DNA from: a virus
DNA: 64,000 nt
Reading direction: 5' to 3' (one strand)
Virus record (IMG/VR): IMGVR_UViG_3300030061_003795
Shown one piece after another: positions 14,597-31,864 of the stretch. The notes beneath the pieces were generated by a model. It made no database searches. It was given only the letters and a program-made list of their open reading frames with translations, and was not told the origin of the DNA. Positions within the stretch are counted from its first letter, which is position 1. Each line of letters starts with the position of its first letter. The translations under genes and the position numbers were made by a program.

Positions 14597-16642
14597 ATGG
14601 ACATTTCACAGAAAATACTATCAGACATAGTAATTCACAACAAATATGCAAAATACATTCCTCAAAAACAGAGAAGAGAAACTTGGGAAGAGCTCGTTAC
14701 TAGAAATAAAGTAATGCACCAATCTAAATTTCCTAAACTTGAAAAGGAAATTGAAGAAGCATATAAATTTGTGTATGATAAGAAAGTATTACCTTCTATG
14801 AGAAGTCTCCAATTTGCAGGAAAACCAATTGAAATAAATAATTCAAGAATATTTAACTGCTCTTACCTTCCTATAGACGATTGGAGGGCATTTAGTGAAG
14901 TTATGTTCTTACTCCTTTCAGGGTGTGGTGTTGGATATTCTGTTCAAAATCATCACGTAGATAAATTACCAGAAATAAAAATACCAACTAAAGATAGGAG
15001 ATTTTTAGTAGGAGATTCAATTGAGGGATGGGCAGATGCAGTTAAGGTTTTAATGAAATCTTATTTTGGAATATCAAGTTCAAGACCTAAATTTGATTTT
15101 AGAGACGTTAGACAAAAAGGAGCAGAATTAGTTACTGTTGGAGGAAAAGCACCAGGCCCTGAGCCATTAAAGGAGTGTTTAGTCCAAATACAGAAAGTTT
15201 TAGACAGAAAAAAAGATGGAGAGCATTTATCCCCAGACGAATCTCATGATATTATTTGTCACATTGCAGATGCTGTATTGTCAGGGGGAATTAGGAGAGC
15301 AGCTTTAATTTCACTATTTGACTTACATGACGAAAGAATGTTAGTTAGTAAAACTAACAGTGTTGAATCAAAGATTTTATCTCAAGAACACAAAACATAC
15401 ATAGATGCCTTTGGACGTCATGAAATGGAAAATGAAATAGTTCTAAAAGTAGAACAAGATGGAGTTGTTTACGATGATATTACAATTAGAAGAGATAAAG
15501 ACTCAGGTAAATTTTGGGATTTAGAACAATATAAAAGAGACGGAACTTTAGGTTGGTGGGTTTGTAATCCTCAAAGAGGAAGAGCCAATAATTCAGCAGT
15601 AGTTATTCGTTCAAAAGTGAAAAAGAAAGATTTTTTTGACCTCTGGGATAAAATAGTAGCAAGTAACACAGGAGAACCAGGAATTTATTTTTCAAACGAC
15701 AAAGATTGGGGAACTAATCCATGTTGTGAAATAGCTTTACGCCCTTTCCAATTCTGTAATTTAACAGAAGTTAATGGAAGTGACATAAAATCGCAAGAAG
15801 ATTTAAATAGTCGTTCGAGAGCAGCAGCATTTTTAGGAACTTTACAAGCAAGTTATACAGAATTTCATTACTTACGTGATATTTGGCAAAAAACAACAGA
15901 AAAAGATGCACTTGTTGGAGTAGGAATGACAGGAATTGGATCAGGAGCAGTTTTAGGTCTAGATTTAGAAGAAGCTGCCAACGAAGCAAAAGAATCTAAC
16001 GCTAAATTAGCAAAAATACTTGGAATTAAACCAGCATCAAGAGTAACTACAGTAAAACCATCAGGAACTAGCTCATTAGTTTTAGGAACTTCATCAGGAA
16101 TTCATGCTTGGCACAATGACTTTTACATTAGAAGAATGAGGTTAGGTAAAAATGAAGCTCTTTACCAATATTTAGCTGAATATCATCCAGAATTAATTGA
16201 AGATGATATATTTAAATCGCAAATTCAAGCCATAGTTTCCATTCCACAAAGAGCCCCTGAAGGTGCCATTTTAAGAACAGAATCTGCGCTAGATTTACTT
16301 GAAAGAACTAAAAAATTCAACACAGAATGGGTAAGAGCAGGCCACAGAAAAGGAGCCAACACAAACAATGTTTCAGCAACAATTTCAGTTAAACAAGAAG
16401 AGTGGGAAACAGTAGGAGAGTGGATGTGGAAAAATAAAAACACATTTAATGGTCTTTCAGTATTACCTTACTCCAATGGTAGTTATCAACAAGCACCTTT
16501 TGAAGACATAGATGAAGCTACATTCTTAGAAATGGAGGGTCATTTATCAGGCATAGATTTAAAGATGGTTACTGAATCAACAGATGAAACAGACTTAAAT
16601 GGACAAGTAGCTTGCGCAGGTGGAGCTTGTGAAATAGTATAA
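14597..16642 (+). CDS. nrdJ: Class II (adenosylcobalamin) ribonucleotide reductase, monomeric RTPR type
   Basis: PSMR, FNCS, GCGVG, RRAALI, TNPCCEI, CNLTE, TTVKPSGT, C-terminal CAGGAC. Confidence 0.92.
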   Translation: MDISQKILSDIVIHNKYAKYIPQKQRRETWEELVTRNKVMHQSKFPKLEKEIEEAYKFVYDKKVLPSMRSLQFAGKPIEINNSRIFNCSYLPIDDWRAFSEVMFLLLSGCGVGYSVQNHHVDKLPEIKIPTKDRRFLVGDSIEGWADAVKVLMKSYFGISSSRPKFDFRDVRQKGAELVTVGGKAPGPEPLKECLVQIQKVLDRKKDGEHLSPDESHDIICHIADAVLSGGIRRAALISLFDLHDERMLVSKTNSVESKILSQEHKTYIDAFGRHEMENEIVLKVEQDGVVYDDITIRRDKDSGKFWDLEQYKRDGTLGWWVCNPQRGRANNSAVVIRSKVKKKDFFDLWDKIVASNTGEPGIYFSNDKDWGTNPCCEIALRPFQFCNLTEVNGSDIKSQEDLNSRSRAAAFLGTLQASYTEFHYLRDIWQKTTEKDALVGVGMTGIGSGAVLGLDLEEAANEAKESNAKLAKILGIKPASRVTTVKPSGTSSLVLGTSSGIHAWHNDFYIRRMRLGKNEALYQYLAEYHPELIEDDIFKSQIQAIVSIPQRAPEGAILRTESALDLLERTKKFNTEWVRAGHRKGANTNNVSATISVKQEEWETVGEWMWKNKNTFNGLSVLPYSNGSYQQAPFEDIDEATFLEMEGHLSGIDLKMVTESTDETDLNGQVACAGGACEIV

Positions 16643-16644
16643 AA

Positions 16645-17202
16645 ATGATAAAACTTAAAGACATACTAAGAGAAATTGGAGAAGCCAACATTGCACCTTT
16701 CAATTGGACAAAAACTTCAGGAGATTCTCCCCAACAATTCAAAGAAAAAATGGGGATGGAAGTCTTTGCAGATTATGGATATGACACTATTATCACATAT
16801 AAATTTACTACCGATAAAGGAACACAATATGGAGTAGATTTACAGATAGAAGAAGATAAAGAATGGGAGAAAGGTATTGAATGTGAAATAGACTTCTCCA
16901 TAAAAGGCGGAGAAGGTAGATACTTACCTATGGACTCAACAAATATGCATGAGCAATATGCAGTTATGTCTACTATAACAGACATACTTGTTACATGGGT
17001 AAATGAATGGGATAAAGAGTTTTATATATCTAAAATTAAGATAGATCCTATTAAGGATGAAGAGGATGACTACAGTGATAGAACACAAAATAAAAGAGGA
17101 AAGTTATACCATGCCTTCATGAAAAAACAACTACATAGACTTAATAAAGAATATTACATAAATGTTTTTGACAACCACTTTGAAATTTCTCCTAAATCCT
17201 AA
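16645..17202 (+). CDS. Hypothetical protein with MIKLKDILRE leader (candidate internal virion protein)
   Basis: N-terminal basic amphipathic leader ending in LxE. Confidence 0.5.
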   Translation: MIKLKDILREIGEANIAPFNWTKTSGDSPQQFKEKMGMEVFADYGYDTIITYKFTTDKGTQYGVDLQIEEDKEWEKGIECEIDFSIKGGEGRYLPMDSTNMHEQYAVMSTITDILVTWVNEWDKEFYISKIKIDPIKDEEDDYSDRTQNKRGKLYHAFMKKQLHRLNKEYYINVFDNHFEISPKS

Positions 17203-17270
17203 AAACCAAAATGAGACAAGACGACTGGATAAGTAAATTATATTATAGATTTGATTTTTCACAAAAAAAA

Positions 17271-17301
17271 TTTGGATCCCCGAATGATAATTCATATATT
17301 A
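17271..17301 (+). promoter_or_regulatory. Promoter TTTGG-N19-TATATTA
   Basis: Same motif and spacing as 10048, 39714, 56653 and 58551. Confidence 0.7.
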
Positions 17302-17310
17302 ACATAGATC

Positions 17311-17484
17311 ATGAACAAACGAGACGCACAAAAGATGAAAGTAGGGGCAACCCGAAAAAATCAAAAGGAACAAGGCTACTTTGATGGTAGGTTTGTAGAA
17401 AGGTCAGAAAAGTTACAAAATAAATATAAAAGAAAACCAAAACACAAAAATAAAAGTTATGACGGAGACGAAGACGAAATATGA
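17311..17484 (+). CDS. 57-aa basic protein, ArfA-like (absent from ORF track)
   Basis: Manual translation MNKRDAQKMKVGATRKNQKEQGYFDGRFVERSEKLQNKYKRKPKHKNKSYDGDEDEI; ATG 10 nt after promoter. Confidence 0.55.
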   Translation: MNKRDAQKMKVGATRKNQKEQGYFDGRFVERSEKLQNKYKRKPKHKNKSYDGDEDEI

Positions 17485-17659
17485 GGACTTAGCAGTTCCA
17501 GAATTAATAAACTTACTAACAATAGTTTTACTAGAAAAGGACCGAGTATTTAGATATCACCCTAAAAACCCCAAAGCTACTCCAATAGAAGAAGAATACG
17601 ATTCTCTTCAAGAAGATATTCAGACTATTACAACTTTAATCACTGAAAAAAGTAAGTAA
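17459..17659 (+). CDS. Hypothetical protein
   Basis: 66-aa ORF, coupled to next gene (TAATG). Confidence 0.55.
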   Translation: MTETKTKYEDLAVPELINLLTIVLLEKDRVFRYHPKNPKATPIEEEYDSLQEDIQTITTLITEKSK

Positions 17660-18111
17660 TGGGGTCAAAAAAAGTACCAAAAAAACCTAAACCTAAACGC
17701 TCTGCTATGAGATTTTATTGGTGGAGACGATTTGGAACCCACAAAAGACTCCCACAAAAAACCTCTCTATTAGATAAAATAAGAAATGGGGATTTTTTAT
17801 CATCTCCCTATTGGGATCAAGCTAGATGGGAGGAAACATATTCTTCTCAACACATTAAAGAAGTTAAAAAAGAAAGACCCTTAATAAGTCAAGAAGAAAT
17901 ATTAGATATAGAAAGAACCTACATTAAACGAAAAAATAGACTCTTAGAAGATGCTTTTAACGACGACACTAGACGCTTAAAACACTTAGAAGAATGTTTT
18001 GTTAAAGAATTAGGGGGTAGCAAAAAGCTTCTGTACAAATGTATAGAAAATTGTGAAGGAGATGAAGAAGTCCTTTACCACGAATATCGAGAACAAGTTA
18101 AAAGTTTATGA
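17659..18111 (+). CDS. Hypothetical protein
   Basis: 150-aa ORF (FYWWRR..LLDKIRNGDF); ATGA overlap with next gene. Confidence 0.6.
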   Translation: MGSKKVPKKPKPKRSAMRFYWWRRFGTHKRLPQKTSLLDKIRNGDFLSSPYWDQARWEETYSSQHIKEVKKERPLISQEEILDIERTYIKRKNRLLEDAFNDDTRRLKHLEECFVKELGGSKKLLYKCIENCEGDEEVLYHEYREQVKSL

Positions 18112-18905
18112 AAATATCACACGAAGTACCTATTCCTTATTTAAATCAGAGTAGAGCATTTAATCAATATGACTACTGTCTCCCTCACTTACTAGATGAA
18201 AGTGAAGAATATAAGAACTATTTCCAAAAATCTAAGGAAATGGGACGCTATATTATTATGGATAATTCCCTACATGAATTAGGTAAACCTTATGATTCTG
18301 ATAGATTATGGTATTGGATGAATTATTTTAAACCCGATGAATTTATAGTGCCTGATTATTGGCAAGATAAAACAAAAACATTAGTTACAGCTAAAGAATG
18401 GATTAACAAAGAATATCCAGAAGAAACAACCCCCGTAGCTGTAGTCCAAGCTGATTGTAAAAGTGATGCTTTTGAATGTTATCACATTTTAAAAATGCAG
18501 GGTTATAATAAAATAGCTTTTAGCTACGGTGCTGATTGGTATTACAAAGAAGGATTAAAATCAACCCCCGATAGTAATAATAATTTTATAACTAAAGCTC
18601 ATGGGAGATATAACACAATAAAAGAATTTTATGGAAAAAAACTAATATCTAAATATGACAAAGTTCATTTATTAGGATGTAATGTACCACAAGAATTTAG
18701 TTGGTATGAGGACATGCCTTTTATAGAGTCACTAGATACCTCCAACCCGGTAATTCACGGCCTCGCAGGAGTAAAATATGAGGATTTTGGATTAGAAGAA
18801 AAGCTACCGTACAAGGTAGATAAATATGAAGGAAACGAGGAGAATTGGGATACAGTATTGTATAACATCTCTAAATTTAAAGAATTCCTTCCAAACATTA
18901 AATGA
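18108..18905 (+). CDS. TGT/DpdA-like TIM-barrel transglycosylase (deazaguanine pathway)
   Basis: IIMDNS, IVPD, PVAVVQ, VHLLG, SLDTS match TGT-family strand motifs; adjacent to que genes. Confidence 0.65.
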   Translation: MKISHEVPIPYLNQSRAFNQYDYCLPHLLDESEEYKNYFQKSKEMGRYIIMDNSLHELGKPYDSDRLWYWMNYFKPDEFIVPDYWQDKTKTLVTAKEWINKEYPEETTPVAVVQADCKSDAFECYHILKMQGYNKIAFSYGADWYYKEGLKSTPDSNNNFITKAHGRYNTIKEFYGKKLISKYDKVHLLGCNVPQEFSWYEDMPFIESLDTSNPVIHGLAGVKYEDFGLEEKLPYKVDKYEGNEENWDTVLYNISKFKEFLPNIK

Positions 18906-19402
18906 TGGTAACAACAATTTCAGTAACAATTACTCTTATCTCAATTTCATATTCAATATGGATTTATTTAAGTAACAGAGATTTTAATAAATCAGCAGAA
19001 ATTAAAGCAAATGCTTTATTAGAACGATGGAAAGTAAAAGAAGAAAAAAGAATCAGAGATGACGCCTATAAAAGGAGTAGAGCAGTAGGTTTTGGAAAAA
19101 CAATAGAACATTTCGTTCCATTTATGGAAGGCTTTCCAGTAAAAGCAAAAGATGTTCAATTTTATGGTAATCCGGTAGATTATATTGGAATTAAAAATAG
19201 AAATAGCAAAACAAAATGTGAAGTTCATTTTATAGAAGTTAAAAGTGGAAGTAGTAACTTAAACCAACATCAAAGAAATATAAAGAAAGCAGTTGATGAA
19301 GGAAGAGTATACTTCGACATAGTAGAAGTAGATGGTTTAACAGAATCAGAAAAAACACTAACAATAACAAATAAACAAACTAAGGATGCAGACCGTAAAT
19401 AA
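18902..19402 (+). CDS. Membrane-anchored PD-(D/E)XK endonuclease (Endonuc_Holl-like)
   Basis: N-terminal TM; RSRAV..GK..EH..PF, FYGNPVDYI, FIEVKSG..LN..QR. Confidence 0.8.
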   Translation: MMVTTISVTITLISISYSIWIYLSNRDFNKSAEIKANALLERWKVKEEKRIRDDAYKRSRAVGFGKTIEHFVPFMEGFPVKAKDVQFYGNPVDYIGIKNRNSKTKCEVHFIEVKSGSSNLNQHQRNIKKAVDEGRVYFDIVEVDGLTESEKTLTITNKQTKDADRK

Positions 19403-19649
19403 AGTAGAATATTACTCACTATATGAATATCTTAACAAAGCTGCAGGGCCAAAATTAGGAAGAGAAGTCAATGCTGCTTCCAAAAGAACAAAACAGCCTA
19501 TAGTAAAACAATACGTTGAACAGGGAGGTTACAAGGGAGAAGTATTTTGTTATACTAGAAAATTTTTAGACGACTATTTCTATGCTGTAGAAAATTGGGA
19601 ACCTTACAACAAATACCCTGAACCCGAAGATGATGATTTACCTTTTTAA
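19386..19649 (+). CDS. Hypothetical protein with SSB-like acidic tail (EDDDLPF)
   Basis: 87-aa ORF; C-terminus PEPEDDDLPF. Confidence 0.6.
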   Translation: MQTVNKVEYYSLYEYLNKAAGPKLGREVNAASKRTKQPIVKQYVEQGGYKGEVFCYTRKFLDDYFYAVENWEPYNKYPEPEDDDLPF

Positions 19650-19658
19650 AAACAAAAT

Positions 19659-20552
19659 ATGAAACAAAAACAAGCAGTACTTAGTCTCTCAGGAGGGATG
19701 GACTCCTCAACCGTATTACTTCATTTACTAGCTCATGACTATAAGGTAACGTGTTTATCTTTTGACTATGGACAAAAACATAGTGTAGAACTTGAAAGGG
19801 CACAAGAATTAGTAAATTATTTAAATTCTAAAGCAGACGAAACTTTAGCTAAAAATGATTTAGGGGAAACCATAATGCACCATTTTGAAAAAATAACTTA
19901 CCAAACTATAAAATTAGATGGTTTATCTACCTTACTAAATTCAGCCTTAGTAAAAGGTGGGGATGAAGTGCCGGAAGGTCATTATGAAAATGGCAATATG
20001 AAAGCAACAGTAGTTCCTAACAGAAATAAAATATTTTCATCAATTATCCAAGCAGTAGCATTATCGATTGCAACTGAAACTGGAGATGAAGTTAAAATAG
20101 CAATGGGAATCCATGCAGGTGATCATGAAATTTATCCTGATTGTAGACAAGAATTTAGAGATGCCGACTACAAAGCATTTTTAGAAGGTAATTGGGAAGG
20201 ACATAAAGTGAAGACCTATACACCATATTTAGATGGAGATAAATTTGATATTTTAAAAGATGGAGAACAGTGTTGTAAATTGTTAGAAGTGGATTTTGAT
20301 GAAGTTTATAAAAGAACTAATACATCTTACAAACCAATCAAACATTATTACAGACCTGAAACAAACGCTTTTAAATGGTACTCAGATTACAAATCAGCTT
20401 CGTCAGTTGAAAGGGTAGAAGCATTCCTTAAGTTAGGAAGACCTGATCCTGTAGAATACGCAGATGAAAAAGGACCAGTAAAATGGGAAGTAGCAAAACA
20501 ACACGTAGAGCAACAATTATATGATTGGGCTGTAGATAAAGGAAGAGATTAA
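19659..20552 (+). CDS. queC: 7-cyano-7-deazaguanine synthase
   Basis: SGGMDS, FDYGQKH, TVVPNRN, YPDCR; canonical C-terminal Zn cysteines replaced (SASSVER). Confidence 0.92.
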   Translation: MKQKQAVLSLSGGMDSSTVLLHLLAHDYKVTCLSFDYGQKHSVELERAQELVNYLNSKADETLAKNDLGETIMHHFEKITYQTIKLDGLSTLLNSALVKGGDEVPEGHYENGNMKATVVPNRNKIFSSIIQAVALSIATETGDEVKIAMGIHAGDHEIYPDCRQEFRDADYKAFLEGNWEGHKVKTYTPYLDGDKFDILKDGEQCCKLLEVDFDEVYKRTNTSYKPIKHYYRPETNAFKWYSDYKSASSVERVEAFLKLGRPDPVEYADEKGPVKWEVAKQHVEQQLYDWAVDKGRD

Positions 20553-20553
20553 T

Positions 20554-20784
20554 ATGAGCGATAGAGAAATAATGGATTCTAAATTTAAAGGAGAGAATCA
20601 AATACATAAATTTATAAAACAAAACCAAGAACACATGCCAGATCAGAAATGGCATAAAATTGTTAGTTTTATTAAATCTGGAATTAGAATAGTAGGTTAT
20701 TGTTTTATTCCCTTTAATTTGGGAATAGCAACTTCTCTTCTTATATCTAGTGAAATAGTAGGAATCGTAGAAGAATTAGTATAA
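20554..20784 (+). CDS. Small hydrophobic hypothetical protein
   Basis: 76 aa, hydrophobic C-terminal half, between queC and queD. Confidence 0.55.
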   Translation: MSDREIMDSKFKGENQIHKFIKQNQEHMPDQKWHKIVSFIKSGIRIVGYCFIPFNLGIATSLLISSEIVGIVEELV

Positions 20785-21248
20785 TGGGAAAGTTTCAATC
20801 AAGTAAAGTTTTTGACGGATTTAGTACAGTGTTTCGTCAATGGAAAGCTAAAAACACACACTGTAGATTTTTACATGGTTATGGTATTTCATTTAAAGTA
20901 TATTTTGAAGGTGATTTAGATGAACGTAACTGGGTATGGGACTTTGGAGGTATGAAACGAGCTAAAACTCTTATAGATGGTAAACAACCCAAAGCATGGA
21001 TGGATTATATGTTTGATCATACTGTAATAGTAGCTAAAGATGATCCAGGGATGGATGGTTGGGAAACTATGAATGAATTAGGAATAATTCAATTAAGAAT
21101 TATTGAAGCTACAGGTGCTGAAAAGTTCTCCGAGTATATTTATAATAAGCTAAATAAATTTGTTAAAACTGAAACAGACAATAGAGTTAGAGTAACAAAA
21201 GTTAAATTTATGGAGCATGGAAAAAATGCTGCATATTATAGTGAATAA
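20784..21248 (+). CDS. queD: 6-carboxytetrahydropterin synthase
   Basis: HCRFLHGY, WVWDFG, FDH, GAEKF. Confidence 0.88.
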   Translation: MGKFQSSKVFDGFSTVFRQWKAKNTHCRFLHGYGISFKVYFEGDLDERNWVWDFGGMKRAKTLIDGKQPKAWMDYMFDHTVIVAKDDPGMDGWETMNELGIIQLRIIEATGAEKFSEYIYNKLNKFVKTETDNRVRVTKVKFMEHGKNAAYYSE

Positions 21249-21272
21249 AAAACCACTTTAAAAAATTACAAT

Positions 21273-22046
21273 ATGTTAAAAAGAATAAAGGATTACAACA
21301 AAGTACTCCCCGTATTAGAAGTATATAGGTGTGTACAATCAGAAGGGTCAAGATTTGGAAGACCCACAATAGCAGTTAGAACAACCGGGTGTACACACAG
21401 ATGCTACTTTGGAGAAGGTGGTTGGTGTGATTCTTGGTATACAAGCATTCATCCTGAAAGAGGAACATTTACATTTAATGATATTATAAAAATATATGAC
21501 GATAACCCTCAAGTAGAAGAAATGATGCTGACAGGGGGATCACCAACTATGCACCCCGCATTAGTAAACGAATTAACACATTTTGCAAATGAAAGAGATA
21601 TTATCATTACGATTGAAACCGAAGGAAGTCATTTCCTTGATACTGACTATCCTATATCTCTCATTTCTCTTAGTCCTAAGTTTAGCAATTCTATACCCGT
21701 ACTCGGTGCTATTACACCTCAAGGAAAAGTTACAGACGAAAGAATGATTAAACAACATAGTAAATTTAGACTTAACTATGAGAAAATAAGACAAACCCTA
21801 GATTACCATACAGATTATCATTACAAACCAGTTTGGGATGGGACTGATAAAAACTTAAAGGAAATTGAGGAATTTAGGGTTAAAATGAAAATCCCAAAAA
21901 ACAAAACATATATAATGCCTGCTGGAGATACTAGAAAAACCCTAGTTGAAATGTATCCTTTAGTATTTGAAATGTGTGCTGAGGAGGGATATAACATGAC
22001 AGGAAGAGATCACATAATTGCTTTTGATACTGAAAGAGGTGTGTGA
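21273..22046 (+). CDS. queE: 7-carboxy-7-deazaguanine synthase (radical SAM)
   Basis: VQSEG...G.P...VR..GCTHRC...WCDS, TGGSP, IETEG, SLSPK. Confidence 0.9.
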   Translation: MLKRIKDYNKVLPVLEVYRCVQSEGSRFGRPTIAVRTTGCTHRCYFGEGGWCDSWYTSIHPERGTFTFNDIIKIYDDNPQVEEMMLTGGSPTMHPALVNELTHFANERDIIITIETEGSHFLDTDYPISLISLSPKFSNSIPVLGAITPQGKVTDERMIKQHSKFRLNYEKIRQTLDYHTDYHYKPVWDGTDKNLKEIEEFRVKMKIPKNKTYIMPAGDTRKTLVEMYPLVFEMCAEEGYNMTGRDHIIAFDTERGV

Positions 22047-22183
22047 TGGAAGAGGCTTTAGAATTGCTGGAAGAGATATCAGAACATGTTGGTACATGCT
22101 GTGCTATTACAATGGAACCTGATGAGGTTCAAGCGATGATTGATGAACTTAAAGAAAAAATAATACAAATGTCAAACAAATAA
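22046..22183 (+). CDS. 45-aa hypothetical protein (absent from ORF track)
   Basis: MEEALELLEEISEHVGTCCAITMEPDEVQAMIDELKEKIIQMSNK; TGATG overlap with queE. Confidence 0.5.
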   Translation: MEEALELLEEISEHVGTCCAITMEPDEVQAMIDELKEKIIQMSNK

Positions 22184-22195
22184 ATAATTACGCAA

Positions 22196-23224
22196 ATGGA
22201 AGAAACTAAAAAGTTTACTAAAAAATATGAGTGGGTTGGAGACGTAGATTCCTACACAGAACCAACCCCTAACGAACATTCGGAGAAATACAATGAACCT
22301 GATCGAGATTATGATAATGAATATAAACCAACTAAAGATGACATTAAAACATTCCCAGATTTGCAAAATGGTCCATCTTCTCTAATTCAAGGTTCCCCAG
22401 TAGAAATTCAACAAGTGGGTATTCATAATTTTAGATTACCCCTAAAATATAAGACTAGAGATAATGGTGTTATAGAATTAGAAACTAAAGTAACGGGTAC
22501 TGTATCACTTGAAGCACATAAAAAAGGAATAAATATGTCTCGTATTATGAGATCATTTTATGAATTTAAAAATGATACTTTTAGTATTGATAAATTAGAA
22601 ACAGTTTTATCTGCTTATCAAGACAAATTAAAATCATTTGATTCTAAAATAGCACTTAAGTTTTCATATCCAATTATCCAACCATCACTAAGATCAGGCT
22701 TAGAAGGATATCAATATTACGATGTTACGTTAGAAGGTGATTTAAATAAACAAGGCGAATTAAAGAAAATTCTCCATTTTGATTTTGTATATTCATCAGC
22801 ATGTCCTTGTTCTTATGAATTAGCTGAATTTGCTAGAAAATATAGAAACAAAGCTACTGTATCACATTCACAAAGATCAGTTACTAGAATATCTATTGAA
22901 TTTGATGATATGGTTTGGATAGAAGATTTAAAGGAAATGTGTGATAAAGCTTTACACACTGAAACACAAGTAATTGTTAAACGTGAAGATGAAATGGCAT
23001 TTGCAGAATTAAACGGATCATATTTAAAATTTGTTGAGGATGCAGCTAGATTATTATACGAGCAATTAGTTGAAGATAAAAGAATTAAGGATTTTAGAGT
23101 AATATGTTCTCATCAAGAATCATTACATTCTCATGATGCAGTTTCAGTTATATTAGCTCCTAACAGTAATTTTAGTGGAGATATTCCACATGAATTATGG
23201 TCAAGTTTAATTCACATTTCATAG
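22196..23224 (+). CDS. folE2: GTP cyclohydrolase IB
   Basis: IQQVGI, KGINMSR, SACPCS, HSQRS, VKREDE, FVEDAAR, ESLHSHDA. Confidence 0.93.
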   Translation: MEETKKFTKKYEWVGDVDSYTEPTPNEHSEKYNEPDRDYDNEYKPTKDDIKTFPDLQNGPSSLIQGSPVEIQQVGIHNFRLPLKYKTRDNGVIELETKVTGTVSLEAHKKGINMSRIMRSFYEFKNDTFSIDKLETVLSAYQDKLKSFDSKIALKFSYPIIQPSLRSGLEGYQYYDVTLEGDLNKQGELKKILHFDFVYSSACPCSYELAEFARKYRNKATVSHSQRSVTRISIEFDDMVWIEDLKEMCDKALHTETQVIVKREDEMAFAELNGSYLKFVEDAARLLYEQLVEDKRIKDFRVICSHQESLHSHDAVSVILAPNSNFSGDIPHELWSSLIHIS

Positions 23225-23282
23225 ATATTTATGAAGTTGAATAGTATTTGTATGTATAAACATAACCCCCAAAAATATAATT

Positions 23283-23438
23283 ATGGACACAATGAAAACA
23301 ATTATTAATTCGTCATGGTTTAAAGCTGCCTTAGCAGGTGGTGTAGCCGTAGCACTATTCATTACTGGTAATACTATGTACACTGGTATAGCATTAGGAA
23401 TAGGAATAAGAGAATTATTATTGGCTTTTAAGAGTTAA
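23283..23438 (+). CDS. 51-aa membrane peptide (absent from ORF track)
   Basis: MDTMKTIINSSWFKAALAGGVAVALFITGNTMYTGIALGIGIRELLLAFKS. Confidence 0.55.
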   Translation: MDTMKTIINSSWFKAALAGGVAVALFITGNTMYTGIALGIGIRELLLAFKS

Positions 23439-23465
23439 TTAAGGGTTACTACCCCAGAAAAAAAT

Positions 23466-23502
23466 TAAGAGAACATAGTAAAAACTTTGTTCTCTTATTT
23501 TT
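23466..23502 (+). terminator. Intrinsic terminator overlapping next promoter
   Basis: TAAGAGAACA / TGTTCTCTTA 10-bp inverted repeat followed by T run. Confidence 0.65.
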
Positions 23503-23515
23503 ATTTCGTACATTA
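23486..23515 (+). promoter_or_regulatory. Promoter TTTGT-N18-TACATTA
   Basis: Variant of recurrent motif; upstream of DUF4494-dut-polB operon. Confidence 0.55.
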
Positions 23516-23543
23516 AAATGTTAAATTAAAATAAATAAAAGTT

Positions 23544-23747
23544 ATGGCTTATTGGCAAGTAAAAGTAAAAGTACAAACAGAAGGTGACAACGGAAAAGTT
23601 AGAAATCACCAAGAATTGTTTTTAGCAAACGCTGAATCAGCGACAGAAGCAGAAACATTAGCACACAAAGAATTTGAAGGAGAATCTTTCTACGATTTTG
23701 AAGTAGTAGATTGTAAAAAAACTAAGGTAATTAAGATATTATCATGA
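23544..23747 (+). CDS. DUF4494-like protein (Bacteroidota family)
   Basis: W.VKVK....NGKV....E.FL..AES.TEAE pattern. Confidence 0.7.
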   Translation: MAYWQVKVKVQTEGDNGKVRNHQELFLANAESATEAETLAHKEFEGESFYDFEVVDCKKTKVIKILS

Positions 23748-24196
23748 TAGCGATTTATGCACACAAGGCAGACCCTCGGGCTGTTGTGCCCGAAGTAGCT
23801 TATGGGGGTACTAGTGCTTGTTTTGATATTACGTGTATTGAAACAACCACTATTCCTGCTAAAGGAAGCGCTGTAGTTCCAAATGGTTTAAATCTTACAA
23901 TCCCTCAAGGAGAAAATTATTGGATGCAGATCCAATTAAGATCCTCTAAAGGTTTTAAATACAGTTTAATCCCTCATTATGGTTGCGTAGATGCAGGTTA
24001 TACAGGAGATTTAGGTGTAAAAATTTACAACGTTGGAGATGAAGATGTTGTAATTGAAGGAGGAGAAAGATACGCTCAAATAGCAGTAATTCCAAAGCCC
24101 GATTACACTTTAGTAGAGTTAAACAGCGAGGAATATCAAAAATTAAAAGAAGACCAATCTCGAGGAGATGGTGGATTTGGAAGTTCAGGAAAGTAA
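23744..24196 (+). CDS. dut: Trimeric dUTPase
   Basis: RSS, G.VDAGYTG, ERYAQ, RGDGGFGSSG. Confidence 0.93.
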   Translation: MIAIYAHKADPRAVVPEVAYGGTSACFDITCIETTTIPAKGSAVVPNGLNLTIPQGENYWMQIQLRSSKGFKYSLIPHYGCVDAGYTGDLGVKIYNVGDEDVVIEGGERYAQIAVIPKPDYTLVELNSEEYQKLKEDQSRGDGGFGSSGK

Positions 24197-24199
24197 TTT

Positions 24200-26866
24200 A
24201 TGTATAAAAATGTTTTTGTAGAAAGAGGTGAAGAATGGAATGTCTGGGATGTACATTTATGGGACGATGATGGTTATAAAGTAGAGCAATTTCAAAACTT
24301 TGCTTTTGTAGAGTGTAGTGAAAATCAAGCTACACATAGAGGAATCAACAACGAACCTGTAAAGAAAATTCACAGATGGGGAAGGGATACTCCCAACATC
24401 CATTATGGAGATCATACTAGAGGAAACATACATATTAAATACTTAGTTGACAAGTATGGAAATGACGATACTCCGTCAACTACCCACAATGAAATGTTTT
24501 TTGATATTGAAATTGAGATGGGGGGCGCCTTAACTCCAGAATATATTAAGAGCGCCCCTAAACCTATAACCTCAATTGCTTGGTGGGATAAGAGATGTGA
24601 TGAATGGAAAATTATCATTGTAGATAAAAAGAACCAACTCGAAAATTACACAGACGAACAAGGTAGAGAAGTTATCCCAACTAACAGCGAACAAGACTTA
24701 ATTTCAGTTTTCTTAGATCACTATGAAAGAATAGCCCCTGACATTTTAGTAGGATATAATAGTGATTATTTTGACATCCCTTATCTATTTTACAGAATAA
24801 GGAGAGTAATGGGAGAAAGATATTCTAACAGATTATCACCTATTAGAACAGTAAGAGAACAAACATGGAGTGAAGACCAACCAATTAAAATAGCAGGTGT
24901 TTCTTCATTAGATTACTTTAGATTACATAAAAAATACCACCACAGAGATGAACCTTCCATGAAGTTGGATTATTTGGGAGAAAAGTATGTAGACCAAAAG
25001 AAAATAGAGTATGAAGGAACTTTAGATACCCTTTTTAGAGACGATATAAATAAATTTATAGAATATAACTTTGTAGATGTTTTGATTTTAAAGAAATTAG
25101 ATGAAAAACTACAATACATTGATTTAACTAAAAATATAGCTCATAAGGGAAAAGTTCAATACGATGAAGTATATGTTAGTACAAGGGTACACGATGGTGC
25201 TATATCTGCCCACCTTTTAGAGCAAGGAATAGCCCCACCTAACAAAGATCCTGAAAACGAAGACTCAGGATATTCTGGAGGATATCTATTCTGTCCTCAA
25301 ACGGGAGTATTTGAATTTATGTTTGATGAAGATTTAACTTCCCTATATCCTTGTATTGCAATGTCCTTAAATATTGGACGAGATTCTTTAATTTTTAGAA
25401 TATTAACTTCTGATAGTAGAGACAATAGGTTAGGTTTAAATGATTTAAAGGAAATGGATCCTGACAAATCAATTGAAATTGAAACTTACGAAAGGAAAAG
25501 AGGTACTACAACTATTGGAAAAATATTAAAAGCAATAGAAGCCAACAACTATGCTATTTCAGCAAATGGAGTTGTTTTTAGAACAGACACCCCCTCAACA
25601 TTAACTGAAGTATTAGATAGGTGGTTTGGGGAAAGAGTTTATTGTAAAGGGGAAATGAAGAAGGCTTATAAAATAGACAACGATCCTATAAAGGGAGCGG
25701 AATGGCACTTAAAACAATATACTCTAAAAATTCTTATTAACTCTTTATGTATGGCTACTGCTAGACCTGAATTTAGATATGGGAATGTTAGGGTAGCAGA
25801 AGCTATTACTTTGACTGGTCAGAGAATTATTCAAGATAGTGGAACCTTTATAAATAAAAAGGCTGCTGAACTTCTAAAACCAGAAAAACCAATATACGAA
25901 ATAAGAACATATCCTACTCAAAAACTACAAGATTGTTTTAATATTGTAATGTATGAGGACACAGATTCATGTTATGTTCATGCTAAACCAATTTTAGATA
26001 AACTTTACCCAAATTTTGATACTCTCGACGAAAAGGACAAAACAAACAAACTGGAAAAAGTAGCCCTTGAATATCAAGAAGCCATTACAGAGTATTACGA
26101 TGAATTTGCTAAAGATGTTTTAAATTTAAATAGTCACAGACTTGAAATGAAGACGGAGTGTGTTATTCGATCTGCTTTCTTCTCAGGTAAACGTCGATAT
26201 GCTCAACACATTACTAAAAAGGAAGGAATAGAAGTTGACGAAGTTGACATTAAAGGGTTGGATTTTATGAAATCTAATTTCCCACCAGTATTTGGTAAGT
26301 TTTTCAACGAAATACTACTTGAAACCCTACACGGAGCTAAAAAAGAACAAATTAACAAGAAAGTATTAGCTTTTAGAGAAGGCATGGACACAATGCCACT
26401 AAGTGATTTAGCTAAACCAACATCCGTTAAAAAGGTTAAAAGACACATAATCAAAAAAGAACCAGGACAAATATTTTCAGGAATTCAAAAGGCAGTCTTT
26501 ACTAAAAAAGTTAAAGGAGGACCTGATAAAGAAACACAAGCAGGAGCTCCAGCACCAGTTAAGGGAGCTATTTTTTACAATGATTTACTTGATTTTAAGA
26601 AACTTGGAGGTAAACACACTCAAATAGTAGAAGGTGATAAAGTTAAATGGGTTTATTTAAAACAAAACCCTTACAAAATAGAAACTTTATCATTTTTAGA
26701 CTATGATTTACCCGAAGAAATTGAAGAATTTCTATTAAAATATGTGGATAGGCCAAGAGCTTTTGATACGATATTAAAGAACAAGTTAGAGTCGTTTTAT
26801 GAAGACCTAAATTGGGGGGGCTTGAACTTAAATCCAACTGTAGAACAATTTTTTAAATTTATATGA
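24200..26866 (+). CDS. Family B replicative DNA polymerase
   Basis: Exo I DIE, Exo II YNSDYFD, Exo III YNFVD; pol motifs DLTSLYP, KILINSL(CM), YEDTDS, KRRY. Confidence 0.93.
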   Translation: MYKNVFVERGEEWNVWDVHLWDDDGYKVEQFQNFAFVECSENQATHRGINNEPVKKIHRWGRDTPNIHYGDHTRGNIHIKYLVDKYGNDDTPSTTHNEMFFDIEIEMGGALTPEYIKSAPKPITSIAWWDKRCDEWKIIIVDKKNQLENYTDEQGREVIPTNSEQDLISVFLDHYERIAPDILVGYNSDYFDIPYLFYRIRRVMGERYSNRLSPIRTVREQTWSEDQPIKIAGVSSLDYFRLHKKYHHRDEPSMKLDYLGEKYVDQKKIEYEGTLDTLFRDDINKFIEYNFVDVLILKKLDEKLQYIDLTKNIAHKGKVQYDEVYVSTRVHDGAISAHLLEQGIAPPNKDPENEDSGYSGGYLFCPQTGVFEFMFDEDLTSLYPCIAMSLNIGRDSLIFRILTSDSRDNRLGLNDLKEMDPDKSIEIETYERKRGTTTIGKILKAIEANNYAISANGVVFRTDTPSTLTEVLDRWFGERVYCKGEMKKAYKIDNDPIKGAEWHLKQYTLKILINSLCMATARPEFRYGNVRVAEAITLTGQRIIQDSGTFINKKAAELLKPEKPIYEIRTYPTQKLQDCFNIVMYEDTDSCYVHAKPILDKLYPNFDTLDEKDKTNKLEKVALEYQEAITEYYDEFAKDVLNLNSHRLEMKTECVIRSAFFSGKRRYAQHITKKEGIEVDEVDIKGLDFMKSNFPPVFGKFFNEILLETLHGAKKEQINKKVLAFREGMDTMPLSDLAKPTSVKKVKRHIIKKEPGQIFSGIQKAVFTKKVKGGPDKETQAGAPAPVKGAIFYNDLLDFKKLGGKHTQIVEGDKVKWVYLKQNPYKIETLSFLDYDLPEEIEEFLLKYVDRPRAFDTILKNKLESFYEDLNWGGLNLNPTVEQFFKFI

Positions 26867-27618: not shown

Positions 27619-27620
27619 AT

Positions 27621-28001: not shown

Positions 28002-28005
28002 AATT

Positions 28006-28323
28006 ATGAAAGAATCACCAATCAACCCTTTAGGAGACCGTGTTGTAATACAGGTTATAGAGGAAACAGAGCAAATGTATGGGAATATTATTATTCCTGA
28101 TATGGGAAGTGAAAAACCTGTAATGGGAGAAGTATTAGCTGTAGGGCCTGGAAGATTTTCCCCTGAAGGAAAGGTAGTAAAGCCCGAAAAACAATTAACA
28201 GTAGGAATTAAAGTTTTGGTTCCTTCATTTGGAGCGCAGAAAGTATCACTAAATAACGAAGAATATATAATTGCAAGTGCAAACGATATTTTAGGAATTA
28301 TAAAATCAGAAGAAAATGAGTAA
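28006..28323 (+). CDS. groES: Co-chaperonin GroES
   Basis: PLGDRVVI, GNIIIPD, GEVLAVGPG, DILG. Confidence 0.93.
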   Translation: MKESPINPLGDRVVIQVIEETEQMYGNIIIPDMGSEKPVMGEVLAVGPGRFSPEGKVVKPEKQLTVGIKVLVPSFGAQKVSLNNEEYIIASANDILGIIKSEENE

Positions 28324-29965
28324 ACAAATAGAATTTGGAAGCGAAGCAAGAGCTAAACTTGTAGCAGGAATAGATAAATTAGCTGACGCAGTAGTAGCTA
28401 CAATGGGACCTAGTGGTCGAAATGTAGTATTTGGAGATCCTATGAAGGGAATTAGAAGTACTAAAGATGGTGTTTCAGTAGCAAAGGAAATTAAGCTAGA
28501 AGATGCTGTTGAAGATTTGGGAGCTCAAATGGTAAAACAAGCAGCCATTAAAACTGCAGACATTGCAGGAGACGGAACAACTACTTCAACTCTAATTGCA
28601 AGAGAATTAATTAAAGAAGGCGTTAAAGGACTTGACAAAGGTAGAAACTCAGTTCAAATTAAAAGAGGAATTGACAAAGCTGTAAGTGAAGTAATTGAAA
28701 ACGTTAAAAACAATATATCTGAAAAAATAACCTCAGAAGATCAATTAAAACAAATTGCATCTATATCAGCAAACAATGATATTGAAATAGGAAACCTAAT
28801 TGCCGCTGCTTTTGACAAAGTAGGTAAAGAAGGTGTAGTATCTATTGAGGAAAGTAAAACACACGAAACAACATTAGAGGTTGTCGAGGGCTTACAGTTT
28901 GATAGAGGTTACAAATCCCCCTACTTTGTAACTGACAATAATTCAATGCAAGCAAATCTCGACAACCCAGATATTCTTTTATACGATGGGAGAATTACCA
29001 ATGTTAAAGACATGGTAAAAATATTAGAAGGTTGTAGTACACAAAACAAATCACTAGTAGTAATTGCAGAAGATATCGACAGTGAAGCGTTGGCAGTTAT
29101 GATTGTAAATAAAATGAGAGGTACTTTAAAATGTTGTGCTATAAAAGCACCCGATTTTGGAGATAGAAGAACCCACATTTTAGAAGACATAGCTGTACTT
29201 ACTGGAGCGACTGTAATTTCACCACAAAAAGGACATAGATTAGATAAAGCTACTCACGAAATGTTAGGTAAAGCTAGAGGTGTAACAGTTACCAAAGACA
29301 AAACAACCATTGTAGATGGAGAAGGTTCAGAAGAATCTATCAACGCAAGATTAGATGAAATAAAAAGTCAAATCGAACGATCAGAAACACCATTTGCAAC
29401 TGAAAAACTCCAAGAAAGATTAGGAAAAATGGCAGGGGGAGTAGCTGTAATTAATGTAGGTGGACACACTGAAACAGAGATGAGAGAGAAAAAAGACAGA
29501 GTAGAAGATGCTATGCATGCTACAAGAGCAGCCATAGATGAAGGAATTGTTCCAGGTGGAGGTATTGCCTTACTATATGGTAGAACATCCATCAACTACA
29601 ATGGAGAAGGTGAAGATTTTAATTTTGGTAAAGAAATTGTTTACAAAGCACTATCAAAACCATTCACACAAATCTTAACCAATTCAGGAGTAGAATCCAG
29701 TGAAGCTAATTTTTTAGGATATAATTTAAAAAATAACACTAAAGGAGATGTTTGGGTAGGATATAATGTTGAAACCCAAGAAGAAATCAACATGAAAGAA
29801 AAAGGAGTTATAGATCCGTTTAAAGTAACTAGAATTGCTTTAGAAAACGCAGCAAGTGTAGCAGGAACAATTTTATTAACTGAAGCAGCTATAATTGACA
29901 CTCCAAAAGAAAAAGACAGCAATGAAGAAATGGCTGCACAAATGTCACAAATGGGAATGATGTAA
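28316..29965 (+). CDS. groEL: Chaperonin GroEL
   Basis: [48 protein letters not shown]. Confidence 0.96.
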
Positions 29966-29967
29966 GA

Positions 29968-30870: not shown

Positions 30871-31091
30871 ACCCAAACGAACAACCAGAGTTTAACTTAG
30901 ACTTTAGCCAAACTGAAGAATATGTTTGTCCAGAGTGTGGTCATAAACATTTTACTCAAGTATTTAAAATGAGAAGATTATCAGCTATGTTAGCTCCTAC
31001 TGGAAATGAAAGTTATATTCCTGTTCCTGTGTATGCTTGTGCAAATTGTCACCACGTACCAGAGCCATTTTTACCACCAGAAAGTAAATAA
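30867..31091 (+). CDS. Zinc-ribbon protein
   Basis: CPEC...CANC. Confidence 0.65.
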   Translation: MNPNEQPEFNLDFSQTEEYVCPECGHKHFTQVFKMRRLSAMLAPTGNESYIPVPVYACANCHHVPEPFLPPESK

Positions 31092-31496
31092 TTGAATCCG
31101 TTTGACCATATTAAAAATCTCCACACTAAGAAGTGTAAGTGGGAAGATCTAAACGATGAAGATAAAAAATCATTTAATGTTTACATCGTTAATAAAGGAC
31201 TCTCTATGAATCCTAATTATTTAGACATTGTAAATACAGTCCAAATATACATGGATAGTCCAGAAATTATTTATAAATTTTACTACTATAGTTTACCTTC
31301 AAAATTTAAATTTTATAAATGGATAAAGGGTAAAAAGGATCAAAGTAAAGATTTACTACAAAAACTTGCAGAATATTATAAAATTTCTCAAAGAGAAGCG
31401 CAAGATTATTTGGAGGTTTTAGATAAGGATTGTATATTGGACATATTATCCGAATTTGGATTAAATAAAAAAGAAACTAAAAAATTAATGAAATGA
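31092..31496 (+). CDS. Clamp loader small subunit (gp62-like), TTG start
   Basis: NPFD..K, FN.YIVN..LS, F.KW.K, YYKISQREA.DY. Confidence 0.75.
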   Translation: MNPFDHIKNLHTKKCKWEDLNDEDKKSFNVYIVNKGLSMNPNYLDIVNTVQIYMDSPEIIYKFYYYSLPSKFKFYKWIKGKKDQSKDLLQKLAEYYKISQREAQDYLEVLDKDCILDILSEFGLNKKETKKLMK

Positions 31497-31864
31497 GCGA
31501 AAATCCTTTAGGAATATCAAAAGAAGACCAAGAAATAGTAAATAGTATTGAAAAACAATACCCTGACCTTACTAAAGAATATAAAAGAATTATGTTAGAG
31601 CAATATATTTTGTTTTGTAAAAAACATTCAAACTATGGTTGTCAAAACATAACTTTAGGAACCAACCTTGAAACAGAAGAGGACATTCAGTTATCTTTAA
31701 CAGGGTTAACAATTAGACTTTTAGATAAAATAAATAGACTAAAGACTATGGTTTTAAAAGGAAAAAAAGACACTGTTGGAGAGTCCATCAAAGATACATT
31801 TCAAGATATGTCAGTATATGGAATTATCGCTCAAATCGTTCAAGAAGGAAAATTTAAAAGATGA
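31493..31864 (+). CDS. DUF1599 / nucleotide-modification-associated domain 1 (Nmad1)-like
   Basis: KKHSNYG...IRLLDKINRL...ESIKDTFQDMSVYGII. Confidence 0.8.
   Translation: MSENPLGISKEDQEIVNSIEKQYPDLTKEYKRIMLEQYILFCKKHSNYGCQNITLGTNLETEEDIQLSLTGLTIRLLDKINRLKTMVLKGKKDTVGESIKDTFQDMSVYGIIAQIVQEGKFKR

Follow-up and report, generated by a model that had tools for sequence, protein, structure and literature searches.

Here we describe a 7-deazaguanine genome-modification module of the DpdA3 type, which very probably occupies positions 17659–24196 of a 64-kb stretch of DNA (hereafter the window). The module is embedded among the replication genes of an uncultured marine phage with an AT-rich genome of at least 153 kb, of which these 64 kb were examined. 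In the predicted pathway, FolE2, QueD, QueE and QueC would convert GTP to preQ0, and DpdA3, in which the catalytic Asp motifs are kept, would swap guanine for the 7-deazaguanine base on DNA after replication, the published mechanism, for which the window would be self-sufficient. We regard this combination of module and DNA-level exchange as the best overall explanation, at about an even chance of being correct. The locus represents the known DpdA3-type gene set in an uncultured marine phage, where the role of guanine modification would be protection from restriction.

The genes for preQ0 synthesis named in the original prediction are all present on the plus strand. FolE2 (GTP cyclohydrolase type IB; 22196–23224) matches Pfam GCHY-1 (E = 1e-70) and NCBIfam FolE2 (272.6 bits, cut-off 215); among 89 DpdA3 loci, only 6 carry FolE2, whereas 45 carry FolE. 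QueD (6-carboxytetrahydropterin synthase; 20784–21248; Pfam PTPS, E = 5.8e-14) is found in 70 of the 89 loci. QueE (7-carboxy-7-deazaguanine synthase, a radical SAM enzyme; 21273–22046) is recognized by NCBIfam QueE models with E-values down to 1.2e-14 and is, at the nucleotide level, 77% identical to QueE of phage immuto and 78% identical to that of Cellulophaga phage phiST. QueC (7-cyano-7-deazaguanine synthase type, 297 residues; 19659–20552) matches Pfam QueC (E = 8.4e-36) and scores 122 bits against NCBIfam TIGR00364, under the cut-off of 150. Its PP-loop motif SGGMDS is kept and the canonical C-terminal Cys4 zinc motif is missing. The protein is orthologous to and collinear with the immuto QueC, and YSDYKSASSVERVEAF replaces the cysteine cluster in both. 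Assignment of the GTP-to-preQ0 steps is based on family membership and on this orthology of an unusual QueC, since the immuto enzyme must supply preQ0 because the immuto QueF needs feeding.

Smaller genes are interspersed on the same strand. o87 (19386–19649), which ends in EDDDLPF and is conserved upstream of QueC, groups with the QueC family because it is fused to the QueC N terminus in one locus (L016); it has homologues in two others (L009 and L062). o76 (20554–20784), a conserved small open reading frame between QueC and QueD, belongs to a family present in 46 DpdA3 loci and matches no Pfam or PHROG family. The DUF4494 protein (23544–23747; Pfam E = 7.6e-8) is 45% identical to immuto gp62 and occupies the matching position, which in immuto lies between FolE and a dNTP pyrophosphatase. 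The module ends with a canonical trimeric dUTPase (23744–24196), recognized by Pfam and by NCBIfam dut, with all five dUTPase motifs readable. It fills the FolE-to-PolB slot, in which relatives have a MazG/PRA-PH or DCD-like enzyme; a gene of the dNTP pyrophosphatase type sits in this slot in all of 36 loci.

The enzyme proposed to use preQ0 (18108–18905, plus strand) had been called a short TGT-like protein, and so it proved: it has 265 residues and a minimal TGT barrel without a Zn subdomain, and is a member of the published DpdA3 subfamily. Pfam and NCBIfam family models do not detect it, its similarity to bacterial DpdA and TGT sequences lying below family-model detection. By tblastn, however, it shares 36% identity with the annotated immuto DpdA over 98% of its length and 35% with CP220 gp056, with a distant match to phiST gp042 (23% identity, E = 1.6e-4); it also matches phrog_19058. 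The AF2 model (pLDDT 96.4) has the (beta/alpha)8 TGT fold, and its top Foldseek matches are ArcTGT (1iq8), TGT and the bacterial DpdA 7ui4 (entitled 'DNA preQ0 insertase'), with TM-scores by target length of only 0.33–0.51. Invariant residues comprise D52 (in DNS), H187-L-L-G190 and D210-T-S-N-P, the last two motifs aligning with HLLG and SIDSTTP of 7ui4 and, more generally, with the HLLG and (S/T)ID(S/T)xxP active-site motifs of TGTs. Unlike the matched bacterial DpdA and TGT chains, which have 355–577 residues, DpdA3 of the window lacks a Zn-binding subdomain and a DpdB-like ATPase partner and is acidic (pI 5.3; family median 5.7), with few invariant basic residues.

DpdA3 is the sole DpdA subfamily that mass spectrometry has tied to complete replacement of G, in CP220, phiST and immuto (PMC10516641). 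Because the enzyme belongs to this subfamily, most or all of the G in the phage DNA is predicted to be replaced, and the high level of replacement originally proposed is a fair prediction. No QueF, DpdL, DpdM or DpdN is in view in the 64-kb window, so the product is probably dPreQ0, or else dADG; with neither QueF nor DpdN, the base is expected to be preQ0 and not formyl-preQ1, in which the window would differ from immuto. The que genes could alternatively supply queuosine for host tRNA as a boost to translation, with the TGT-like protein acting on tRNA and not on DNA. Phages with que genes and no recognized DpdA were formerly interpreted in this way, and the fold is that of tRNA-guanine transglycosylases. 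We nevertheless consider this reading exceedingly improbable, given that the protein is a DpdA3 homologue, that mass spectrometry showed fully modified DNA in three groups of DpdA3 phages (PMC10516641), and that the protein has neither the Zn element nor the C-terminal element of the fold-matched TGTs, with low TM-scores.

Among the characterized systems, immuto resembles the window in that a DUF4494 protein likewise follows the cyclohydrolase and GroES/GroEL lie downstream. However, the window has FolE2 and PolB where immuto has FolE and PolA, and its cluster lacks the MazG-like hydrolase, phosphoribosyltransferase and AAA_28 kinase of immuto. Campylobacter phage CP220 (Firehammervirus), the source of the dADG system (Crippen et al. 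2019, as cited in PMC6884629 and PMC10516641), is like the window phage T4-like and equipped with PolB, but its que genes are scattered rather than compactly clustered, and its DpdA3 is flanked by an HD plus P-loop protein and an AAA_28 kinase, neither of which the window has. The dDG system of phiST, whose host phylum is probably similar to that of the window phage, comprises FolE, QueD, QueE, DpdL and DpdA3. It uses the DpdL decarboxylase and is without QueC, and, unlike the window, it has MazG and an AAA_18 P-loop kinase (a family differing from AAA_28) beside DpdA3 and a PolIII-alpha replicase.

Directly upstream of DpdA3, with its stop codon overlapping the DpdA3 start, lies o150 (17659–18111, plus strand), a basic (pI 9.4), all-helical protein of 150 residues. 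It represents a conserved, unnamed basic helical family beside DpdA3 that is newly noted here. Members occur in 61 of the 84 DpdA3 loci with sequence upstream of DpdA3, overlapping it or lying within 50 nucleotides in about 38; in one locus (L108), the gene is downstream. An AT-hook-like C terminus, RGRP(K/R)K, is present in 42 of 58 members. o150 has no match in Pfam, PHROG or NCBIfam, and its AF2 model (pLDDT 88.5) has no fold match in the PDB. It was not found in immuto and is missing from the nearest relatives of the window locus (L010 and L011). Directly downstream of DpdA3 is a nuclease that resembles Holliday-junction resolvases and has a hydrophobic segment at its N terminus (18902–19402, plus strand; Pfam Endonuc_Holl, E = 2.6e-29); the same gene follows DpdA3 in 13 loci, and whether it is linked to the module is uncertain.

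The two most probable readings differ in the substrate on which DpdA3 would act. To our knowledge, all characterized TGT and DpdA enzymes work on polynucleotides. The window cluster would suffice for a DNA-level route without further enzymes, and most loci of the clade pair DpdA3 with a basic, often AT-hook-bearing protein family. By contrast, the acidic DpdA3, with no Zn subdomain and few invariant basic residues, and the loss of o150 from the closest relatives count against it. A post-replicative event has been proposed for DpdA3 in the literature, although attempts in E. coli failed and action on DNA has never been demonstrated (PMC10516641). We place DNA-level exchange by DpdA3 at even probability.

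A reading that we rate somewhat below even keeps the same module but has DpdA3 exchange the base before replication, with a free nucleotide or nucleoside of deoxyguanosine as its substrate. A dedicated small kinase and the host NDK would then form the triphosphate; competing dGTP would be cleared by an enzyme that cleaves it, and the modified dNTP would be built into DNA by the ordinary polymerase of the phage, by analogy with the dCTPase, dCMP hydroxymethylase and dNMP kinase of T4. Complete base replacements of known route in phages (T4 hmC, SPO1 hmU and S-2L Z) proceed via the nucleotide pool. The T4 hydroxymethyl-dCTP pathway (gp56 dCTPase, gp42 and gp1 kinase) is a works-like comparison only: if the nucleotide reading is right, the MazG/HD, DpdA3 and kinase triad of other loci would mirror it, but T4 hydroxymethylates C5 instead of exchanging a base, and none of the flanking enzymes is in the window. 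In seven divergent loci (CP220, immuto, L115, with overlapping stop and start, L116, L117, L119 and L120), DpdA3 has a small AAA_28 (NadR/dNK-like) kinase beside it or close by, and phiST has its AAA_18 kinase there. The AAA_28 family is rare, matching only 110 of 50,697 phage records, and all 18 isolate records with a full-length match to the window DpdA3 are Campylobacter or immuto phages, both groups with kinase hits. DpdA3 often has a MazG, HD or HIT enzyme as a neighbour (HD in CP220, HIT in L123), and phosphoribosyltransferases travel with DpdA3 in other loci. The completeness of replacement, the ADG nucleoside reported from CP220-infected cells (as cited in PMC10516641), the pyrophosphatase-type slot and the acidic, minimal form of DpdA3 also fit.

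Because these kinases, MazG-like hydrolases and phosphoribosyltransferases accompany DpdA3 elsewhere, the nucleotide-level idea of the original prediction stays alive as a DpdA3 route. However, we know of no TGT-fold enzyme that acts on mononucleotides, and no dGTP-removing enzyme, nucleotide kinase, MazG or phosphoribosyltransferase was found in the 64-kb window; the kinase and dGTPase would have to sit outside it or be the host's. The dUTPase is canonical, and in Microcystis phage Mel-JY01, too, a dUTPase gene immediately precedes PolB. None of 86 loci of the marine clade has an AAA_28 kinase within 10 kb of DpdA3, although such a kinase is encoded farther away on 3 of 10 large fragments from the clade of the window, one of them a contig with a 67%-identical DpdA3. 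The family is also present in 89 Streptomyces phages, and in the one checked, Jay2Jay, QueD was not found. Moreover, recycling of released guanine to GTP, the preQ0 precursor, can equally explain the phosphoribosyltransferase and kinase.

The original prediction had extended the pathway to an altered reductase, Nmad1 and PolB, on the grounds that all five features co-occur within 17 kb. All five are present, but their proximity could not be confirmed as informative, since the gene order is conserved synteny that is also seen in a que-less phage. Three of the features lie outside the module on the plus strand. The monomeric B12 ribonucleoside-triphosphate reductase (RTPR type, class II, NrdJ; 14597–16642; PDB 1l1l, E = 2e-35) has an insertion of about 65 residues relative to Mel-JY01 (residues 253–319, about nt 15353–15553), where the spacing is about 53 residues longer than in 1l1l; of its 120 nearest homologues, 99 have 600–629 residues and lack it. 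The T4/RB69-type PolB (24200–26866) reads KILINSLCMA in motif B (nt 25727–25756), against KLLINSLYGA in RB69. DUF1599/Nmad1 (31493–31864; Pfam 29.2 bits, cut-off 25) directly follows the clamp-loader genes.

Co-adaptation of these three to a modified-guanine route, with Nmad1 as a dGTP pyrophosphatase, is very unlikely, even though the features are real and the NrdJ insertion clade includes a second DpdA3-bearing phage (L107). The NrdJ of another DpdA3-bearing locus (L108) has no insertion. SLCM occurs in only 2 of 85 PolB homologues with a readable motif B, namely in the cluster of the window itself and in a single relative at 68% identity, and the other 83, including those of three loci with DpdA3 and que genes (L013–L015), read SLYGA. 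Characterized DpdA3 phages use three polymerase families (PolA, PolIII-alpha and PolB). Position 7 of guanine faces the major groove, whereas Y567 and G568 of RB69 contact the minor-groove side.

Co-occurrence across relatives, proposed as a check, ran against the extended pathway: other DpdA3-bearing loci lack the NrdJ insertion (L108) or the PolB variant (L013–L015), and Mel-JY01 (PP395634), in which QueC and DpdA3 were searched for and not found, keeps the same backbone. In our reading, the pathway does not include NrdJ, PolB, the clamp loader or Nmad1, all of which are housekeeping genes of replication. The Mel-JY01 block is without GroES/EL, its NrdJ (60–64% identical) has no insertion and its PolB has the canonical SLYG, but its gene order is that of the window: RecA, 5'-3' exonuclease, DnaB, NrdJ, dUTPase, PolB and a 251-residue protein, then the clamp loader, Nmad1, a PD-(D/E)XK nuclease and glycosyltransferases, with 25–64% identity across the set. 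Its Nmad1, at the same position, is the only phage-isolate homologue of the window protein (54% identity).

The TGT-like protein encoded at 18108–18905 of the window (265 residues, plus strand) is predicted, from its sequence and modelled fold, to be a member of the DpdA3 subfamily. It aligns with proteins of Flavobacterium phage immuto (gp65, annotated as DpdA; 36% identity over 98% of length, E = 3e-42), Campylobacter phage CP220 (gp056; 35% identity, E = 5e-38) and Cellulophaga phage phiST (gp042; 23% identity, E = 1.6e-4), which are the founding members of that subfamily (PMC10516641). It also matches phrog_19058 (E = 7e-41), and searches of Pfam and NCBIfam returned no family match to it. 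An AlphaFold2 model built with 30 homologues reached a pLDDT of 96.4, and Foldseek related this model with probability 1.00 to archaeosine TGT (1iq8), bacterial TGT and the DNA preQ0 insertase DpdA (7ui4). The (beta/alpha)8 fold of TGT and the catalytic Asp motifs are both kept: D52 (in DNS), D83, H187-L-L-G190 and D210-T-S-N-P are invariant in 30 sequences, and the HLLG and DTSNP segments align to HLLG and SIDSTTP of 7ui4. The zinc subdomain is absent. Clustering at 90% identity divides the family into 2,751 protein clusters. Among the 150 cluster representatives listed, no fusion of DpdA3 to a kinase was seen; the fusions found are to a DpdN-like formyltransferase (homologue P0268), to GIY-YIG/NUMOD homing-endonuclease parts (P0243 and P0289) and to DUF3310 (P0287).

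The window is AT-rich (G+C ~32%) and its genes form one strand-coherent block on the plus strand. An upstream group encoding a gp32-like SSB, RecA, a 5'-3' exonuclease and DnaB is followed by a class II reductase (NrdJ, 14597–16642), three small or unknown ORFs and DpdA3. Next come an Endonuc_Holl nuclease and an 87-residue ORF; then QueC, a 76-residue ORF, QueD, QueE and FolE2 in sequence; DUF4494 and a dUTPase; PolB (24200–26866) and two unknown ORFs; GroES, GroEL, the clamp loader, a Zn ribbon and a gp62-like protein; and DUF1599/Nmad1 (31493–31864) with a PD-(D/E)XK nuclease after it. Between PolB and the clamp loader the phage encodes GroES and GroEL (28006–29965), as do immuto and most relatives. 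The Holliday-junction-resolvase-like nuclease (18902–19402), which has a hydrophobic N-terminal segment, stands directly 3' of DpdA3 in the window and in 12 other loci. A small protein upstream of QueC (19386–19649) ends in EDDDLPF, resembling an SSB tail, and in comparison locus L016 (11467–12372) its counterpart is fused to the QueC N terminus. Among cultured phages the window has only distant kin; its megablast matches are confined to the QueE genes of immuto and phiST (77–78% identity). An identical reductase protein is found on a 153.5-kb contig, and the genome is therefore at least 153.5 kb.

All four preQ0 enzyme families (FolE, QueD, QueE and QueC) are found in the window, with QueC, QueD, QueE and FolE2 within 5 kb of DpdA3. 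FolE2 scores above its NCBIfam cut-off, PTPS (QueD) and QueC score above their Pfam cut-offs, and QueE matches the NCBIfam QueE models and has 77% DNA identity to immuto QueE. QueC (19659–20552) keeps the PP-loop motif SGGMDS, has YSDYKSASSVERVEAF in place of the C-terminal Cys4 zinc site and falls below the TIGR00364 cut-off. It is collinear with immuto QueC, the loss of Cys4 is common to both, and the two are probably QueC-type enzymes of a divergent phage subgroup. Because immuto makes a preQ1-derived base via QueF, and so needs preQ0, a QueC of this type should make preQ0. QueF, DpdL, DpdM and DpdN are not in view in the window; for this reason the predicted base is dPreQ0, with dADG as the alternative. 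The window carries a minimal version of the DpdA3 module, a module already known as a kind and of which it is a further member. Near-complete replacement of G is reasonable to expect from membership of the DpdA3 family, and the minimal gene set would predict that dPreQ0 replaces it completely; none of the DpdA3 phages whose DNA composition is given in PMC10516641 has this base at full replacement.

We surveyed 89 DpdA3 loci, taking up to 10 kb per side and clustering the ORFs. The neighbours include QueC (79 loci), QueD (70), QueE (63), FolE (45) and FolE2 (6), together with ribonucleotide reductase (54), thioredoxin (51), phosphoribosyltransferases of two families (45) and a dNTP-pyrophosphatase-type gene (45). 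Where a gene stands between FolE and PolB (36 loci with that order), it is PRA-PH/MazG, DCD-like or dUTPase in all 36; in Microcystis phage Mel-JY01, a backbone relative of the window phage that has no que genes, a dUTPase likewise precedes PolB. HMMs made from the relatives and run over the whole 64 kb found no MazG/PRA-PH, DCD-like, phosphoribosyltransferase or small-kinase gene. MazG-like genes are present in relatives. Within the 64 kb there is no dGTP-removing enzyme, the dUTPase being canonical (all five motifs) and HD genes being absent.

The original prediction had joined the TGT-like protein, an altered NrdJ, Nmad1 and an altered PolB into a pre-replicative route to modified guanine. 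All five features on which it drew exist (the preQ0 genes, the TGT-like protein, the NrdJ insertion, Nmad1 and the altered PolB motif B), and each of the three replication genes was followed across relatives. The reductase aligns with the RTPR of L. leichmannii (1l1l; E = 2e-35), including the catalytic loop TNPCCEI and the C-terminal Cys pair CAGGAC; it exceeds the cut-off for the RNR-II insertion domain PF21995 (28.4 against 27 bits), and its best NCBIfam model is RTPR, at 270 bits below the cut-off of 340. It is a monomeric B12 ribonucleoside-triphosphate reductase (RTPR). Compared with the Mel-JY01 orthologue it has an extra segment of ~65 residues (residues 253–319, nt ~15353–15553), additional to the RNR-II insertion domain; the segment does not reach the length of an intein. 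Most of the 120 nearest homologues have 610–620 residues and no insertion. The insertion is found in 18 of them, a subclade of 670–694 residues with 62–100% identity; it is present in the DpdA3-bearing locus L107 and absent from the 620-residue form of L108, which also bears DpdA3.

PolB aligns with RB69 gp43 (E = 6e-48) with motif A (DLTSLYP) and motif C (YEDTDS) intact, and it is clearly a PolB homologue, with a variant active site: in motif B (25727–25756) the near-invariant KxxxNSxYG is replaced, reading KILINSLCMA against KLLINSLYGA in RB69. The SLCM form occurs only in the window's own PolB cluster and in one relative of 68% identity (P0122), whereas SLYGA is present in 83 other homologues (44–65% identity), among them those of L013–L015, loci that carry DpdA3, QueC, QueD, QueE and FolE yet have an SLYGA polymerase. 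The SLCM change is unrelated to the que genes. The replicases of DpdA3 phages are themselves of different kinds, namely PolA in immuto, PolIII-alpha in phiST and PolB in CP220. Nmad1 exceeds the Pfam DUF1599 cut-off (29.2 against 25 bits), and the DUF1599 family set is common to 29 of its 30 nearest Atlas clusters. No link of Nmad1 to nucleotide- or base-modifying genes was found, its position after the clamp-loader genes being the same in Mel-JY01, and a literature search on Nmad1/DUF1599 function gave nothing relevant.

Among isolates, Mel-JY01 is the closest for PolB and the only one with a match to Nmad1, and its genome contains neither QueC nor DpdA3. It nonetheless keeps the backbone genes in the order of the window: RecA, exonuclease, helicase, NrdJ (60–64% identical), dUTPase, PolB and a 251-residue protein, continuing with the clamp loader, Zn ribbon, gp62-like protein, Nmad1 (54%), PD-(D/E)XK nuclease and glycosyltransferases. 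Because a phage without QueC and DpdA3 keeps this order, NrdJ, PolB and Nmad1 are backbone genes with no role in the pathway. The four-part pipeline is unsupported, and an attractive but mistaken connection of the que genes with three unusual-looking genes of replication is removed.

The gene immediately upstream of DpdA3 is a newly noticed neighbour. It encodes a 150-residue protein (o150, 17659–18111), and its stop overlaps the DpdA3 start. Of the 84 loci that extend upstream of DpdA3, 61 have a member of its family, which usually overlaps DpdA3 or lies within 50 nt of it; in L108 the homologue lies on the opposite side of DpdA3. The family is basic (median pI 9.1), and an AT-hook-like motif, RGRP(K/R)K, forms the C-terminal end in 42 of 58 members. 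The predicted structure is a helical bundle, for which a fold search against the PDB gave no match at E ≤ 0.001, and the protein has no sequence-family match. This unnamed family is coupled to DpdA3. The closest relatives, L010 and L011, have no member of it, nor do immuto, CP220 and phiST; it is thus an accessory and no requirement.

Whether DpdA3 exchanges the base on DNA or on nucleotides bears on the order of events. For the Campylobacter phages a modified dGTP was the field's first proposal. Following the recognition of DpdA3, a post-replicative origin was proposed for every 7-deazaguanine DNA modification, and the same authors could not make DpdA3 work in E. coli (PMC10516641). Our search for literature after 2023 on DpdA3 biochemistry gave nothing relevant. 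We regard exchange on DNA as an evenly balanced proposition, and the AT-hook-like motif of the neighbouring o150 family points to DNA. Contrary to the published post-replicative model, DpdA3 could instead be a base-exchange enzyme acting on nucleotides or nucleosides, and no DNA transglycosylase, such that a 7-deazaguanine dNTP would be built before replication. An AAA_28 kinase and MazG/HD-type hydrolases would take the other steps, encoded in the window phage by genes outside the window, and the scheme would hold for this widespread marine clade and the other DpdA3 phages. This we entertain tentatively, as a possibility somewhat short of probable. The acidity of DpdA3 and its few invariant basic residues favour a nucleotide substrate; use of a mononucleotide is not known for any TGT-fold enzyme, which counts against one.

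The kinase bears on the nucleotide-level scheme from both sides. Seven divergent loci (CP220, immuto, L115, L116, L117, L119 and L120) have a small AAA_28 (NadR/dNK-like) kinase adjacent or close to DpdA3, with an overlapping stop/start in L115; phiST has a different P-loop kinase at DpdA3, and L123 a HIT-domain protein beside it, all in support of a nucleotide route. Kinase coordinates are 12819–13361 in L002 and 19798–20322 in L001. The rarity of the family adds to this support: it has 110 matches among 50,697 phage records, which include the Campylobacter and immuto phages; every one of the 18 full-length isolate matches of the window DpdA3 falls in one of these two groups. In the window's marine clade the kinase never occurs within 10 kb of DpdA3, but it is found elsewhere on 3 of 10 large fragments, the latter again in favour of such a route; the 64 kb of this at least 153.5-kb genome hold no dedicated modified-nucleotide kinase, AAA_28 or other. 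Against it, the family is also present in 89 Streptomyces phages, one of which (Jay2Jay), when checked, was found to have no QueD, and we rejected it as a DpdA3-specific marker. The phosphoribosyltransferase and kinase are equally readable as recycling the freed guanine to GTP, from which preQ0 is made. These counts come from protein and HMM searches, since the Pfam probe Thymidylate_kin (PF02223) was too insensitive and missed the annotated kinases of immuto and CP220. In L116 and L120 an amidoligase-like and a GNAT-domain protein stand between DpdA3 and the AAA_28 kinase.

Most restriction enzymes are ineffective against genomes with 7-deazaguanine, and defence glycosylases are now known to target such genomes (bioRxiv 10.1101/2025.10.29.685425). 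Pieces of the window are found in marine metagenomes from 13 studies; with the 2,751 DpdA3 clusters, DNA in which G is fully substituted may therefore be common in marine waters. As a stand-in for modification, palindrome avoidance was uninformative: the window shows a mild depletion of 4-mer palindromes that contain G (median O/E 0.83), against 0.79–0.82 by the same measure in three known fully modified phages. In Mel-JY01, GATC and CTAG are both missing from a stretch of 35 kb (55000–90000; O/E 0.0), whereas DpdA3 phages show mild depletion only, a contrast that fits site avoidance as the protection of Mel-JY01 and base modification as that of DpdA3 phages.

Two further regions were recorded. 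For an ORF of 446 residues (8262–9602), neither Pfam nor the PDB sequences gave a match. The ESM Atlas clusters closest to it (score 0.98) consist of viral proteins of ~440 residues named 'DNA polymerase family A', and L108 has a homologue at the same place with a faint DNA_pol_A match. The ORF may encode a PolA-like enzyme of miniature size, a second polymerase next to the PolB replisome. At 35007–54116, ~19 kb is given to glycan biosynthesis (NeuB, a CMP-transferase, several glycosyltransferases, methyltransferases, a DegT aminotransferase, a GDP-mannose dehydratase, epimerases and an Asn-synthase-like amidotransferase). The amidotransferase (48867–50171) was considered as a Gat-QueC and dropped, as it has no QueC domain and sits within this cluster. 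Several of the glycan genes are common to the window and Mel-JY01.
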